From positions 256,001-320,000 of the IMG/VR virus record IMGVR_UViG_3300021255_002539: a stretch of 64,000 nucleotides of DNA; one strand, given 5' to 3'. This DNA comes from a virus. Taxonomy: Duplodnaviria; Caudoviricetes. The translations under genes and the position numbers were made by a program. Positions 30,019-41,980 of this stretch are shown here, piece after piece. The notes beneath the pieces are model-generated. The model ran no database searches. It worked only from the letters and a program-made list of their open reading frames with translations, and was not told the DNA's origin. Positions within the stretch are counted from its first letter, which is position 1; every line of letters starts with the position of its first letter.

Positions 30019-31758
30019 TCATCTCTCCAATATCGAGAACACTGGCTTTTCGTTTGGCTGGCATCTCTTGAGAACCTTCTTCCCAAAGTGCTTGTCGTAT
30101 ATTGGCGCATTGTTTGGTCCGCATAGATCAACCCTGGTAACTCCCAGTCCTGCGCAAAGCTTCGCCACGATGTCCTGCGTGTCCTTGTCTCCGTGGACGA
30201 TGGTCAGGTCAACCTTGTTCATCAATGCGATCATCAACTTGCCCAATGCCCGTGGATCTATGTTGTCCATATTGTCGACGACCAACTCGAATGGTGGCTT
30301 GCTTGGCTTTACGACTTCCTCTACTGGCTTCTCTGTCGCATCTGCCACATTTGGCTTTGGTGCTTCGACCACCTTCTTCTCTGGCTCGACCTTGGTTGTC
30401 TCTGCCGTGTTCGGGCAATCCACGCCATAGATGTAGTCAGGGGCGTCCGCGTACTTCTCCGCTAACATGGACTTGGTGTCGTAGGTGTCTTCCTCCTGCG
30501 TGTTGATGACCCTCATGCCATAGTTGTTCTCGCCAGGGATTGGGACAACGCCATCTCTCAGGTGAAGTGTCTGCTTGAATCCACTGTAGTCAACATAGTG
30601 GTGCCACCTGTGGAACTTCCACACGACCTTCGCAATGTCCGGGTAGACTTTCGCCAGCATCTCGCTCTTTGGCTTGGTTCCCTCCTTGGAATAGAACACC
30701 TCTGTGTTGCCACCCTTGACCTTCTGTGTAGTGCATTTGCCAAACAGCGCCCAATTTGCCTGAACAGTACACCATCCGGCCGTGAGCATGTCCAGCGACA
30801 GAATGGTGTCTTCGTTGTACCTGCCCCTCCACCTGAATGGAACATCGTTGCGAATCATGTTGCACGAGTATATTCTGGTGTTCATTGTATATGGCGGGTG
30901 GTACGCATCCATCGTCACGAACATCTTGTAGTTGGGACCGAACATGGCTATGTTGTCGTATCTGTCCACCCAATCCTCGCAAGCAGCAAGCAATGCGCCA
31001 GTCCTGCACTTCACCTTCACATTGTGCCAGAACCAATGGAATCCCTCTGTGGCGTTGTCGTCCATGACCCAATGCCATTTGTAGCCCCGCTTGATGGAGT
31101 CGTCCCACGCGAAGTTTCTGGCTGGACCGGGCCCAGTGGAGTGGGTGGCGTTGTCCCAGTCGTCCAATGTATCGTATTTGTCCTTGTACGACATGTCCAA
31201 CTCCAATATAGTGGCGTACTTGTTGGCGACCTTTTCCTGGTAGGCAGCCACATCTTGTGGTTCGACCACCACGAAATGCGGAACTTCCATTTGGCTCAGA
31301 AACCTGGAGGTATAGCATCGTTCGCTTCTGCTTCTGGACACGATGTATATTGGATATCTGGGGTTCTTGTCCCCACCAACGACCCTCAACTTGGAATACC
31401 ATCCTGGAACAAGCTTTGGATACCAAACAGAAATGGTCTTGGCAGATACGTTTTGGTCGAAGATCTTCTTGGCTAGATCCAAGTCCCCCTCGTTGAACTT
31501 GAAGTCAACTTGAGCATACGGCTTCGCTGCGTCATGGGACTCGTATACTGGCATCTGCCACCACTGGTCCTTCCACTTCGCGTCCCTCGCAGAATCGTCC
31601 TTCTTCGCCTTTTTCTTGGTGGGTTTCTTCTTTTCCACCTTTGTCTTGGCATTGACATCGTATTCCTTCGTCAGGCAAGTGATGTCAGTGCCATTGCGCT
31701 TGTTGAAGTCGTCCAATGCGGCTTGGTCAGCGAATCTGCAAATAATCCTCGTGTTCAT
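30019..31758 (-). CDS. GT-A glycosyltransferase, TET-associated (TAGT/GREB1-like) family; candidate DNA base glycosylation
   Basis: YPIYIVSRSR, VVEPQD...Y, GPGPARNFAWD, HWVMDDN, NTRIYSC, WRGRYNED, GGNT, RWHHYVDY. Confidence 0.75.
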   Translation of the reverse strand: MNTRIICRFADQAALDDFNKRNGTDITCLTKEYDVNAKTKVEKKKPTKKKAKKDDSARDAKWKDQWWQMPVYESHDAAKPYAQVDFKFNEGDLDLAKKIFDQNVSAKTISVWYPKLVPGWYSKLRVVGGDKNPRYPIYIVSRSRSERCYTSRFLSQMEVPHFVVVEPQDVAAYQEKVANKYATILELDMSYKDKYDTLDDWDNATHSTGPGPARNFAWDDSIKRGYKWHWVMDDNATEGFHWFWHNVKVKCRTGALLAACEDWVDRYDNIAMFGPNYKMFVTMDAYHPPYTMNTRIYSCNMIRNDVPFRWRGRYNEDTILSLDMLTAGWCTVQANWALFGKCTTQKVKGGNTEVFYSKEGTKPKSEMLAKVYPDIAKVVWKFHRWHHYVDYSGFKQTLHLRDGVVPIPGENNYGMRVINTQEEDTYDTKSMLAEKYADAPDYIYGVDCPNTAETTKVEPEKKVVEAPKPNVADATEKPVEEVVKPSKPPFELVVDNMDNIDPRALGKLMIALMNKVDLTIVHGDKDTQDIVAKLCAGLGVTRVDLCGPNNAPIYDKHFGKKVLKRCQPNEKPVFSILER

Positions 31759-31779
31759 ATCCGAAATCTCCTTGTCATA

Positions 31780-32601
31780 TTATACATCGGTTGGGCTGTT
31801 CTGTAAAGACGAGAAGTTGAACTTGCTCAAGTCATATGTTGGGTAGCAATGTTCCAAGGTGTCCTCGTATGTGTTGCCATTCAGCTTGTTGGCATATGCG
31901 TTCTTGTCTTGCATGGCCACAGCATTGTCTCCTGTCGTACAATACAGGTTCAAGCCCTTCATCTCCCCGTTCTTGCCATATGTATATTGGTCAATCGCCC
32001 CCAATGGCTCGGTCTCGCTCTCCATCCTCTCCACTATTCTGTCGATGGCCTTTTTTGACAACCCCAAGCAGCTGCTGTCGTATACGACCGAATCGTACCT
32101 CATGACCAGGGCCTGATCCCAGTTCTGATTTACCTCGTTCCCCTCCAAGTCGAAGTACTTTCCCCAACAACCCTTTCCATTGCCCATCCAACCCTTCCTA
32201 CGGAACGGCGCGTAGTTCATTATGTCGTAGTCGTCTGGAGTTGCGTCCAATATGGTCTGGATTTCACCCAAGTCCTTTCTGAACACGATGTCGTCCTCCA
32301 GGAATAGAACATGGTTGAATTGCTGATACTGCAATCTCTTCAACAAGATATAGCATTGCAGTGTATATTCCCTGATGTTCATGGTTATCTTCTTGTTCAC
32401 GCCCTTTTTCCTCCAAGTTATCATCTTGGTGAAGAACCAAGGTGTCGTGAATTCCATATCCAACCTGCCAGACCTGGAAATCCCAACCCTGTCCAACTCG
32501 GACATCAACTTGGGCAACCTTTCTGCCTTGGGCGTGAAGTGCATGCAGACTATTCTGTCGAACCTGTTCCACATCGCTGAAGTTCCCTCAATCGACATCA
32601 C
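31780..32601 (-). CDS. Glycosyltransferase, GT25-like
   Basis: FDRIVCM..ERL, VLFLEDDIVF, PDDYDI. Confidence 0.65.
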   Translation of the reverse strand: MMSIEGTSAMWNRFDRIVCMHFTPKAERLPKLMSELDRVGISRSGRLDMEFTTPWFFTKMITWRKKGVNKKITMNIREYTLQCYILLKRLQYQQFNHVLFLEDDIVFRKDLGEIQTILDATPDDYDIMNYAPFRRKGWMGNGKGCWGKYFDLEGNEVNQNWDQALVMRYDSVVYDSSCLGLSKKAIDRIVERMESETEPLGAIDQYTYGKNGEMKGLNLYCTTGDNAVAMQDKNAYANKLNGNTYEDTLEHCYPTYDLSKFNFSSLQNSPTDV

Positions 32602-35351: not shown

Positions 35352-35929
35352 GTTGCTTTCTTCCTCCTGTTTTTTGTGTTCTTTTCTTCCTTCTTCCCAC
35401 GAAACTCCCATTGCGAAACCACAGTGTAGGATTTCGAGTTGGATTTCGTGCAAATCAATCCTGTCCCACAATCCCTGTCCACTGGGATGTAGCTTTTCGC
35501 CTCGTCCACTATCCAGGTCATTGTCTGGTCAGAGAACTTGATTCCGTACTTCGAGTGTGCGTATTCCACCCCAAGCATCGTAATCCACAGTTCGTATTGG
35601 TACTTGGATGTGTCGTTCCAAGCATAGCCCTCCACTTGCGACGGAACCCGCTTCGACAACACGCAATGCGAGAGTTCGTGGAAGAACGCAATCAACATGC
35701 TCTCTATGGGGTTGTCGCAGTTGGAGTGGATTCCGTGACCCTTGACCTTATCACCCATCTTCGCCTTCACGAATGGCGAGAGCATGATTGTGTTTCCAGT
35801 GGAGCCCCCGTAGTTGTAGCCACCCATTCCCTCGTTCGCCTTGAGGAATGTGAGCTTTACGCCCTCCTGCTTGGCAATTGAGCGCATCAACTTCTTGGTG
35901 GATTCCAATGTTCGGGTGTATGTCTTCAT
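35348..35929 (-). CDS. HExxH metallopeptidase-like protein
   Basis: AFFHELSH. Confidence 0.6.
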   Translation of the reverse strand: MKTYTRTLESTKKLMRSIAKQEGVKLTFLKANEGMGGYNYGGSTGNTIMLSPFVKAKMGDKVKGHGIHSNCDNPIESMLIAFFHELSHCVLSKRVPSQVEGYAWNDTSKYQYELWITMLGVEYAHSKYGIKFSDQTMTWIVDEAKSYIPVDRDCGTGLICTKSNSKSYTVVSQWEFRGKKEEKNTKNRRKKAT

Positions 35930-36702
35930 CAGGCCACCTTTCTGTACACTGGCTTGTGTCCGGGCTTGAGCGAGACCATCTTGCTTTTGCCGAGGTGGCG
36001 TTTGGGGATGTGTGACTCGCCCTTTGTGGTGGTATAGAGCAGTTCTGAACGGATGCCCAGTTCCAGGCAGAGTTCGTTCAGCTTAGTACGCTCCTTCACC
36101 TTGCTGTGTACGACCGTGATGTAGTTGCTTTGCTTCAGATTCACGAGCATCTTGCGCATCTCCTGCATGTCGATGTTCACGAGGGAGTCTATCACAATCT
36201 CCTTGTGGGGCTTCGTGGCGTATTCCTCCCCCATGTACTCGTATGAGAACCGCTCAGAGTTCACGATGTACATGTTCTGGTTCCTGCCATTGATCTTGCC
36301 ATTGGACACATCTCCCTTCTTGCCATTCCTCGGACCTTCCTTCCACAGGTTGGAGTTCTCGAAGTGGTGGGCCAGGGACTCGTGTGCAGTTCTGATGAAC
36401 ATCTTGTACCCCTTGTCAACATACATCTTGCACAGGGTCTCCAAGAACTTCGTGCCCAGACCCAGACCTTGGAAGTCGGGGAGTATGACCAGACGATGGA
36501 CTGCCTTGCTGAAGTTCAACGAGCCATTCGGATATGGGCGTATTGCGCAGAATCCAACATAGGCGTCGTTCCACTTCAAGACCCAACAATCTGCCGCCAG
36601 GAGAAGATCGTGGCTCAGATAGTGATACGGAGCGAATATCTTCCAGACCTCTCCCTTGCGCTCCGATTCAACTCGCTCGAAGGAGAGGTCGATGCTTTTC
36701 CC
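35929..36702 (-). CDS. GNAT (Mom-like) acetyltransferase domain, expressed by -1 frameshift from the ABC ATPase
   Basis: WKIFAPYHYLS, VGFCA, RLVILPDFQGLGLG; no in-frame ATG before the conserved W..F..YHYL motif. Confidence 0.8.
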   Translation of the reverse strand, partial: GKSIDLSFERVESERKGEVWKIFAPYHYLSHDLLLAADCWVLKWNDAYVGFCAIRPYPNGSLNFSKAVHRLVILPDFQGLGLGTKFLETLCKMYVDKGYKMFIRTAHESLAHHFENSNLWKEGPRNGKKGDVSNGKINGRNQNMYIVNSERFSYEYMGEEYATKPHKEIVIDSLVNIDMQEMRKMLVNLKQSNYITVVHSKVKERTKLNELCLELGIRSELLYTTTKGESHIPKRHLGKSKMVSLKPGHKPVYRKVA

Positions 36703-37355
36703 AGGCGGAACCCCCTGAGGTCATATACCTTTTCGGTGTTCAGGTCAACGAGGATGTCCGGCTTGAGCATGGGGATGATGTCGTAGTGGCATCCACAGAA
36801 GATGACATTCTTGAGCCCGTTCTTCCGGATGTACTTCTGAACGCTATGGCTGGCACTCATTGCGCACTCCCTGTTCACCACGCTCGTGTATTCGTCAATC
36901 ATGACCTTGGATTCGAGGTTGAGCGCGAGATCGGCCCGGAAACCCTCGCCAGTGGAGAGGACATTCCTGGGACGGCACCAATGGGGAATCGAGTTCAGCC
37001 CAACTGACTTGAGCTTGGACTTGCCTTTCTTGGGGTTGTCCGGGAAGTTCGATATGATTGCCTTGGAGTTGTCGTAGACCTTGTTGGGGAAATGCCAACC
37101 AGCCTTCTCGAACGCCTTGAGGAATGTGGACTTGCCAGCACCAGAGGGACCGACAATCTGGATGATGTTCACATCCAGGTTCAGAATCTCGTTGGGGATG
37201 ACGAAGGGGTATACCTTGGACTCCCCAGTGAACTCGTAATCGAATGCCTTCTTGATGAGGTTGATGCCCTCGTCAATCGGCACCTTGCTTACTTTTGGCT
37301 CGGTGCTTCGCTTCAACTCGCAAAGCACGGGCGCGTTCTCCCAGCTTTCACTCAT
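36615..37355 (-). CDS. ABC-type ATPase
   Basis: GPSGAGKST Walker A, LSTGE signature, IDEYTSVVNR Walker B, CHYDI. Confidence 0.9.
   Translation of the reverse strand: MSESWENAPVLCELKRSTEPKVSKVPIDEGINLIKKAFDYEFTGESKVYPFVIPNEILNLDVNIIQIVGPSGAGKSTFLKAFEKAGWHFPNKVYDNSKAIISNFPDNPKKGKSKLKSVGLNSIPHWCRPRNVLSTGEGFRADLALNLESKVMIDEYTSVVNRECAMSASHSVQKYIRKNGLKNVIFCGCHYDIIPMLKPDILVDLNTEKVYDLRGFRLGKASTSPSSELNRSARERSGRYSLRITI
36646..36716 (-). promoter_or_regulatory. Programmed -1 ribosomal frameshift cassette
   Basis: AGGGGG (36711-36716), G_GGA_AAA (36696-36702), 5-nt spacer, GACCTCTCC/GGAGAGGTC stem (36646-36690). Confidence 0.75.
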
Positions 37356-37383: not shown

Positions 37384-37593
37384 TTATAGACCAATCCCAC
37401 GGAAGTTGAAGTCTCCCCTACTTACGGCCAGCCTTTCGGCATCCCTGGCGGCCTCGTAGTCGCTCCGCTCACGTTCCTCCTTGGCGCACTGCATGCAGAT
37501 GCAGTCGGTGTTGTACATCGACATCGTGCGTCCACCATCAAGGGGCGATCCACACCTGTCGCAAGTTTTCTGCGTAAAGAACTTGTCTGCCAT
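37384..37593 (-). CDS. Small C4 zinc-finger protein
   Basis: CDRCG..MSMYNTDCICMQC. Confidence 0.75.
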   Translation of the reverse strand: MADKFFTQKTCDRCGSPLDGGRTMSMYNTDCICMQCAKEERERSDYEAARDAERLAVSRGDFNFRGIGL

Positions 37594-37670
37594 TGTCTAT
37601 CTCCTTTCAACACCTATAGTATAGCATAATCAGGTGGTGAATGTCAATACCCCTTGGACAAGAAAACCAC

Positions 37671-41901: not shown

Positions 41902-41980
41902 TGGCTGATCCACCTCCTTTGCCACGGAGGACCCAGCGGGTTAGAGCCGCTTGTGCTATTAGGCATTACACTATGGATCA
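41902..41980 (-). tRNA. Amber suppressor tRNA (anticodon CUA), probably Gln-accepting, with non-canonical D and T loops
   Basis: TGATCCA-TA-GTGT-AATGCCTAATA-GCAC-A-AGCGG-CTCTAAC-CCGCT-GGGT-CCTCC-GTGGCAAA-GGAGG-TGGATCA-G-CCA: all four stems pair and CCA is encoded. Confidence 0.92.

Follow-up and report, generated by a model that had tools for sequence, protein, structure and literature searches.

A predicted -1 frameshift joins an ABC ATPase to a GNAT domain in a phage gene whose in-frame relatives carry a putative +1 counterpart

The window analysed here is a stretch of 64,000 nucleotides (positions 256001-320000) from a complete virus record of 414,060 bp that has direct terminal repeats. 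Its minus strand holds the only copy in the genome of a gene in which the reading frame of an ABC ATPase overlaps a -1 frame encoding a GNAT acetyltransferase domain (Table 1). The ATPase (0) frame ends at TGA 36617-36615 after 246 codons. The -1 frame, which opens only at 36720 after TGA 36723, runs into the GNAT domain and ends at TGA 35931-35929, so that both frames are as a first-pass annotation of the DNA had described them. TAG is absent from both frames at this site, and a possible recoding of TAG in this phage is therefore irrelevant to it; a crude coverage test for such recoding was confounded, since coverage also rose when TGA was opened. A tRNA-like sequence whose anticodon loop reads CTCTAAC (CUA), located at 41902-41980 on the minus strand and not called by ARAGORN, would fit TAG recoding. 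A cluster of 27 tRNA genes at genome positions 361964-370952 includes Leu(GAG) and, as the only Lys tRNA called, Lys(UUU). Two adjoining glycosyltransferase-like ORFs lie at 30019-32601 of the window, also on the minus strand, and a TAGT gene (PF20691) is found near the fused sister gene of locus L093.

Table 1 Features of the ATPase-GNAT locus, in window coordinates
Feature	Position	Strand	Remarks
Sigma-70-type promoter-like site TTGACA-18-TATACT, extended -10	37618..37647	-	11/12 match; consensus match only
Zinc-finger-like ORF, 69 aa, phrog_27033, directly 5' of the gene	37384..37593	-	does not adjoin the gene in L001
0-frame ORF, 246 aa: ABC ATPase (residues 1-220) plus 26-aa tail; predicted default short product	36615..37355	-	ORF from ATG 37355
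ATPase motifs: Walker A 69-76, signature 133-137, Walker B 151-155, H190	within the 0-frame ORF	-
Internal SD-like AGGGGG, 8 nt 5' of the heptamer	36711..36716	-	position homologous to the +1-cassette SD of in-frame sisters
Slippery heptamer G_GGA_AAA, ATPase frame	36696..36702	-
11-bp hairpin (putative stimulator), 5 nt 3' of the heptamer	36646..36690	-
Dual-coded segment: 0-frame tail with Ile-Thr-Ile-stop at 36626-36615	36615..36695	-	-1 frame encodes GNAT beta-1, alpha-1 and the YHYL motif
-1 frame: GNAT domain (PF00583, E 6e-9) plus C-terminal extension; would complete a 475-aa fusion	35929..36696	-

Inside the ORF overlap, the ATPase codons CTG GGA AAA form an in-frame X_XXY_YYZ heptamer, preceded by the SD-like run and followed by a stem of nine Watson-Crick pairs extended by a G-U and an A-U. 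All three elements had been proposed in the first-pass annotation and lie exactly where it placed them. The hairpin has a folding energy of -23.0 kcal/mol (z-score -2.0 against dinucleotide shuffles) and beats synonymous recoding of the same peptide (p = 0.012). The two strands of the 414-kb genome contain 816 X3(A3/U3)H heptamers, and this site is the only one that combines an SD-like run upstream with a strong hairpin 4-9 nt downstream, by criteria fixed after the site had been seen. The SD-like run may be inherited rather than stimulatory, because it is placed where the sister group carries the SD of the +1 cassette described below. Its spacing falls just below the 9-14 nt reported for stimulation of -1 shifts, as opposed to 3 nt for +1 shifts (PMC5009743). 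Against synonymous recoding it is marginal (p = 0.044), and in relatives it is mostly not significant; in a subclade with a five-residue insertion a purine run is found at an unchanged distance and is absent in fused sisters, again without significance. In E. coli, G_GGA_AAG is highly shift-prone and A_AAA_AAA is weaker than A_AAA_AAG (PMC5009743). Since sites ending in AAA are weaker than those ending in AAG in that host, the efficiency of a -1 shift at the window site would probably be moderate to modest; no shift has been measured.

A -1 shift at the heptamer would join 220 residues of the ATPase to 255 residues of the -1 frame in a product of 475 aa. Natural in-frame sister fusions, at about 70% identity, have 471-482 aa, with 475 aa among them, and both halves of the window gene match phrog_11143, a fused profile of 357 positions, with E values of 4e-45 and 4e-28. 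In a structure model of a natural in-frame fusion (pLDDT 89.7, pTM 0.84), the slip point falls exactly between the last ATPase helix and GNAT beta-1, and structure comparison aligns the GNAT folds from residue 225 onward.

Conservation of the frame break in homologues had been suggested as a check on this interpretation, and the break is indeed kept, in the -1 direction, together with in-frame heptamers and hairpins. Of the 120 ORFs that best match the ATPase ORF (50-96% identity), nearly all encode the ATPase alone; 116 carry LGK, LKK or LGE at the break site, and most end in ITI, III or FTI. A frame census of the fetched loci places the GNAT at -1 in 52 and calls two as +1. One of these (L105) is a -1 junction plus a later break, which leaves the other (L286), a G7-for-G5 variant, as the sole true +1. 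These counts (231 in-frame genes versus 52 split ones) provide no estimate of prevalence, because scans with the fused alignment rank full-length in-frame matches first. The -1 arrangement is also present in the cultured phages TR-TP1, P335, 315.4, Vinitor-27 and 9184, where it is annotated as two genes. A 608-aa homologue (P0132) with homing-endonuclease/intein-type Pfam matches (PF05204, PF14528) still has the LKK site and a III tail, and in Tenacibaculum phage pT24 (LC168164; L108:2366-3538) an in-frame stop splits the gene after HHYL, not at the linker.

The heptamers of the -1 relatives vary (GGGAAAA, AAAAAAA, GGGGGAA, AAATTTT, GGATTTT) and all are in frame. They are followed after 3-6 nt by hairpins of unrelated sequence with energies of -18 to -24 kcal/mol. 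In 14 of 20 loci the hairpin outperforms synonymous recoding (p<0.05); fused sisters free of the signal fold at -7 to -10 only, the null level. The stem of the window clade is 94.5% paired and shows two compensatory changes, evidence that is weak taken alone (24/500 shuffles). The hairpin is weak or absent in some -1 genes, namely L017/L101 and a group with a T9 run. Sisters at about 70% identity (P0123-P0131) are fused without a recognisable signal, from which we infer that some lineages can do without the short form. The linker of L102-L104 and L107, from Oenococcus, Lactococcus P335 and Streptococcus prophages, is at -1 without a classical heptamer; it has a G_GTT_TTT-like or T-rich site and a weaker hairpin, with a ParB-like/methyltransferase gene upstream and a terminase gene downstream.

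The in-frame relatives carry a different signal at the same linker. Three in-frame sisters (L018, L019, L090) have AGG GGG, three bases and CTT, which is the geometry of prfB. We searched 126 in-frame homologues at <=80% identity for the pattern NGG RGG, 3 nt and an XYY codon at the linker, and in 106 of them found an SD followed, after 3 nt, by a P-site codon that could re-pair at +1. The pattern had been defined on 46 genes that are contained in the larger set. Chance would provide far fewer, with a positional background of 0.4% per window and a synonymous null with mean 1.3 and a maximum of 5 in 500; after thinning to <50% identity, the cassette remains in 12 of 16 genes versus 0.2 expected. 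The residues encoded by the SD vary (RR, RG, WR, GR, WG) while the purine run stays, the argument that has been used for prfB (PMC5009743). The P-site codon is CTT in 83 cassettes, whereas elsewhere CTT makes up 13% of the Leu codons. It is never followed by G (0/83), and GAA, CAA or AAA is always followed by A (13/13), so that +1 re-pairing is possible throughout. The A-site codons are sense, most of them for Arg or Gln (CGG 44, AGG 21, CAA 19), so the UGA of prfB has no equivalent. These cassettes are found in phages of Aeromonas, Gordonia, Arthrobacter, Burkholderia, Pseudomonas, Pseudoalteromonas, Leptospira and Pasteurella, including the cultured phages PX29, Jace, EastWest, phiE255, Komp_PAO1_1 and SL25, and in planctomycete, actinobacterial and archaeal genome contigs.

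A +1 slip in these cassette genes would enter the very frame in which the window gene ends its short product, and selection is observed on both of the overlapping frames. Over the 22 codons from the linker to HHY, that frame contains no stop in any of 106 cassette genes (null 41 +/- 4.6) or of 24 split genes (null 9.7), and the +1 frame of control windows agrees with the null. The tail end I-T/I-I-stop is likewise enriched in the 106 cassette genes, with Ile in 102 versus 53 expected, Ile in 103 versus 50 and the stop in 84 versus 41; after thinning to <50% identity there are still 0 stops versus 5.4 expected and 12 tail motifs versus 3.9. In relatives with separate genes, free of the overlap, the ATPase ends in GSFKI, GRIQL or GEFKI, as compared with GSITI in split genes. 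Since these overlap-free ATPases keep similar ends, the tail is most simply read as a protein feature of the free ATPase. The predicted short product of the window gene is, on this evidence, an ATPase with a 26-aa tail under selection, not a junk tail. By its sequence alone, this tail seems to resemble the G-x-I-x-I strand of transporter ABC domains.

It is very likely, although no +1 product has been measured, that most in-frame relatives make the same two proteins by a prfB-like +1 slip. The rival account that best withstands the data accepts the -1 shift of the window gene and takes the cassette of the in-frame relatives as a pause site or a nucleic-acid motif without any +1 frameshift. An SD followed by a slow codon can indeed pause ribosomes between domains, and the sense codon in the A site, unlike the UGA of prfB, would be compatible with such a role. 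However, a P-site codon capable of +1 re-pairing is not required for a pause, and a pause explains neither the stop-free +1 frame nor the selected I-T/I-I-stop at the point where -1 genes end their short product. We consider it unlikely, but not to be disregarded, and retain the +1 slip as the preferred reading of the cassette.

For the window gene itself, two separately initiated genes would make a shift unnecessary. Gene callers annotate two ORFs, and true two-gene versions exist in the family (L087, L287), in which the ATG overlaps the upstream stop and the GNAT has an N-terminal extension; the window gene has neither feature. In one of them (L287:1910-2587) an HNH/NUMOD gene is inserted between ATPase and GNAT, and both halves are intact with their own stop and start. 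The claim that the GNAT has no good start of its own is borne out, as there is no ATG or GTG in the -1 frame between 36720 and 36480 and the first TTG, at 36579, lacks an SD (pairing of only -2.8 kcal/mol). Initiation of a complete GNAT at this TTG, which would have refuted the programmed shift, is highly unlikely, since the protein would lose 39 residues with beta-1, alpha-1 and the invariant W, F, H and Y. A start at ATA 36639, behind the purine-rich 3' arm of the stem, has an SD-like run upstream (-8.6 kcal/mol), but would lose the invariant Trp. Separate initiation would also leave the conserved heptamer unexplained, and we regard it as highly improbable.

Addition of an extra A by the RNA polymerase would give the same frame change as ribosomal slippage. 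This has some appeal in the family, where A7 or T9 runs occur in relatives, and slippage is known on runs of 9 A or T (PMC5009743). A group from aquatic viruses has a T9 run at the linker and includes in-frame T10 variants (L043, L082); for this group only, transcriptional slippage is the likely mechanism. The two T10 variants lie inside the T9 (-1) clade and could be assembly miscalls or a reversed slippage state. The window run, however, is only A4, the variants G_GGG_GAA, G_GAT_TTT and A_AAT_TTT are no homopolymers, and the hairpin keeps a fixed spacing of 3-6 nt, as ribosomal stimulators do. We therefore give transcriptional slippage only a very small chance at the window gene and favor a ribosomal shift. 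Lastly, an assembly indel, which would also have refuted the shift, or a recently broken pseudogene in this genome, as intact fusions of 471-482 aa at about 70% identity might suggest, is effectively ruled out even without read data. Independent assemblies from ENA, Logan, JGI and IMG/VR, at identities between 96% and 40%, share this break, as do the cultured phages TR-TP1, P335, 315.4, Vinitor and 9184; it is almost always -1, and the GNAT frame is open and conserved.

In the ATPase tree, the -1, +1, T9, two-gene and signal-free forms are observed to be interleaved. The sister of the -1 group of the window gene is formed by the in-frame L018, L019 and L090 (support 99), which have an Arg-Gly or Arg-Arg SD at the same place. 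A single clade of -1 genes, with nested derivatives, is rejected (p-AU 2.8e-9), in a test that left out L106, L236, L286 and 43 near-neighbours and in which the groups were named after the first tree had been seen. The predicted shift mechanism has thus switched repeatedly within the family. We claim no order of events, because the tree, obtained by a quick search, is unrooted and recombination at the linker is possible.

The proteins themselves fit a known family. The ATPase has the ABC nucleotide-binding fold in structure comparison (Z about 12), and the succession of Walker A, signature, Walker B and H-loop, followed by a GNAT with HHYL and V-x-x-P-D-x-Q-G, is that of the phrog_11143 family. 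The ATPase homodimer model scores 0.81 versus 0.00 for the best control, with at least 95% of contacts agreeing between runs and pLDDT of at least 89; the mark used for this score is reached by 20 of 30 solved pairs and by 1 of 23 solved single chains. The ATPase is thereby modelled as a textbook ABC head-to-tail dimer, which may reflect memory of solved ABC dimers. The GNAT fold matches generic N-acetyltransferases (Z about 15), none of which stands out. The first-pass annotation had called this domain Mom-like; membership in an ABC-coupled GNAT family stands, but no Mom profile is among the matches, and GNATs coupled with an ABC ATPase are listed apart from the Mom family (PMC7824862). That paper, citing Iyer et al. 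2013, predicts that the ABC-coupled GNAT acylates a DNA base, and it contains no mention of frameshifting for ABC-GNAT; its example phage, pT24, encodes a homologue (E 5e-41).

Genes next to the relatives encode ParB-like, formyltransferase, methyltransferase and terminase proteins. On the strength of the published prediction and of these neighbours, we lean slightly towards phage DNA as the substrate of the GNAT, with acylation being inferred and untested. In L114, L117, L118 and L121 (Porphyromonas, Gordonia, Burkholderia and Pseudomonas phages) a formyltransferase gene directly follows ABC-GNAT, and it could provide an acyl donor or a second modification step. A search for ParB_N gave no match in the genome of the window, and Pfam revealed no Com-like activator upstream in Mu-like phages.

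Based on the above data, we propose that one mRNA would give rise to two proteins. Most ribosomes would translate the ATPase frame as far as TGA 36617, which yields the 246-aa ABC ATPase, ending with its selected G-x-hydrophobic-x-hydrophobic tail. A fraction would be held up by the hairpin while GGA occupies the P site and AAA the A site. After a tandem slip the tRNAs would re-pair with GGG and AAA, and further translation in the -1 frame would produce a minority of 475-aa ATPase-GNAT; the internal SD may tune this slip. In most in-frame relatives the fusion would be the default and the tailed ATPase would arise from the SD-driven +1 slip. Short and long chains could then form mixed ABC dimers with one GNAT per dimer, and the ATPase would exceed the acyltransferase. 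Because the ATPase models as a head-to-tail dimer, such inferred mixed dimers are the simplest reason for keeping both products, an idea to which we give a little more credence than not; a regulatory or degradable short form is an alternative. The conserved break, its -1 direction, the heptamers and hairpins, and the natural 475-aa fusions support the programmed -1 fusion put forward in the first-pass annotation. We conclude with high confidence that the window gene contains a real programmed -1 frameshift that would work in a dnaX-like manner, while its occurrence in vivo and its ribosomal nature are inferred. With less assurance, we consider it probable that this widespread gene family of phages, prophages and bacteria produces the same two proteins by ribosomal frameshifts of opposite direction that have replaced each other several times, that the +1 element is a natural prfB-like cassette acting at a sense codon that is read slowly, in genes whose annotation as intact hides it, and that the C-terminal strand of the short protein, whose frame overlaps HHYL, is functional.

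Our literature search revealed no paper linking the ABC-GNAT family to frameshifting, and no earlier paper on the +1 cassette of in-frame relatives or on the stop-free overlapping frame with its selected tail. The search covered few subscription journals and neither the GeneTack (Antonov 2013) nor the Sharma 2011 tables, so this absence is unproven. Neither mechanism is new in kind, but we found no description of the two being used in mirror image within one family together with a selected dual-coded tail. To our knowledge, bacteria and phages offer few well-supported examples of natural +1 frameshifts, and screens for broken ORFs miss those that an SD drives at a sense codon in a gene that looks intact. 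With more than a hundred natural variants of the cassette, of both directions and some of them from cultured phages, the family makes the upkeep of a two-product ratio and flips in shift direction directly testable. If the mechanism holds, the supply of Arg and Gln tRNAs could set the product ratio during infection. Reconstitution of the predicted ABC-GNAT DNA-modification system from the fusion alone, or from only the two annotated ORFs, would probably fail to give the working complex.

Among known systems, prfB (PMC5009743) resembles the in-frame relatives in its +1 geometry, with a GG_GGG or GG_AGG SD, a 3-nt spacer and CUU in the P site. Unlike in prfB, the next codon is sense instead of UGA, the genes do not belong to the RF2 type, a +1 slip would truncate rather than complete the protein, and the cassette is located mid-gene at a domain linker; the window gene itself has no +1 slip site. 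The orfA-orfB genes of insertion sequences and lambda g-gt share the X_XXY_YYZ -1 shift, with a short protein and a fusion produced in a fixed ratio, but their proteins are unrelated, the window gene being neither a transposase nor a tail chaperone. The ABC-coupled GNATs (PMC7824862) correspond at the protein level, as both halves of the window gene match phrog_11143. A further likeness is that to dnaX tau/gamma (PMC5009743), where one gene yields a short ATPase and a longer form with extra C-terminal domains, stimulated by a heptamer, a hairpin and an SD, the last of uncertain role in the window gene, and where the same two products can arise via -1 shifting, transcriptional slippage or with roles reversed. 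The ABC-GNAT family differs in having an ABC instead of an AAA+ fold, in its mostly phage or prophage location and in an apparent +1 route, and the default product of the window gene is the short one. The gamma product of dnaX ends almost immediately after the shift, whereas the short form of ABC-GNAT is predicted to carry a selected 26-aa tail encoded in an overlapping frame.
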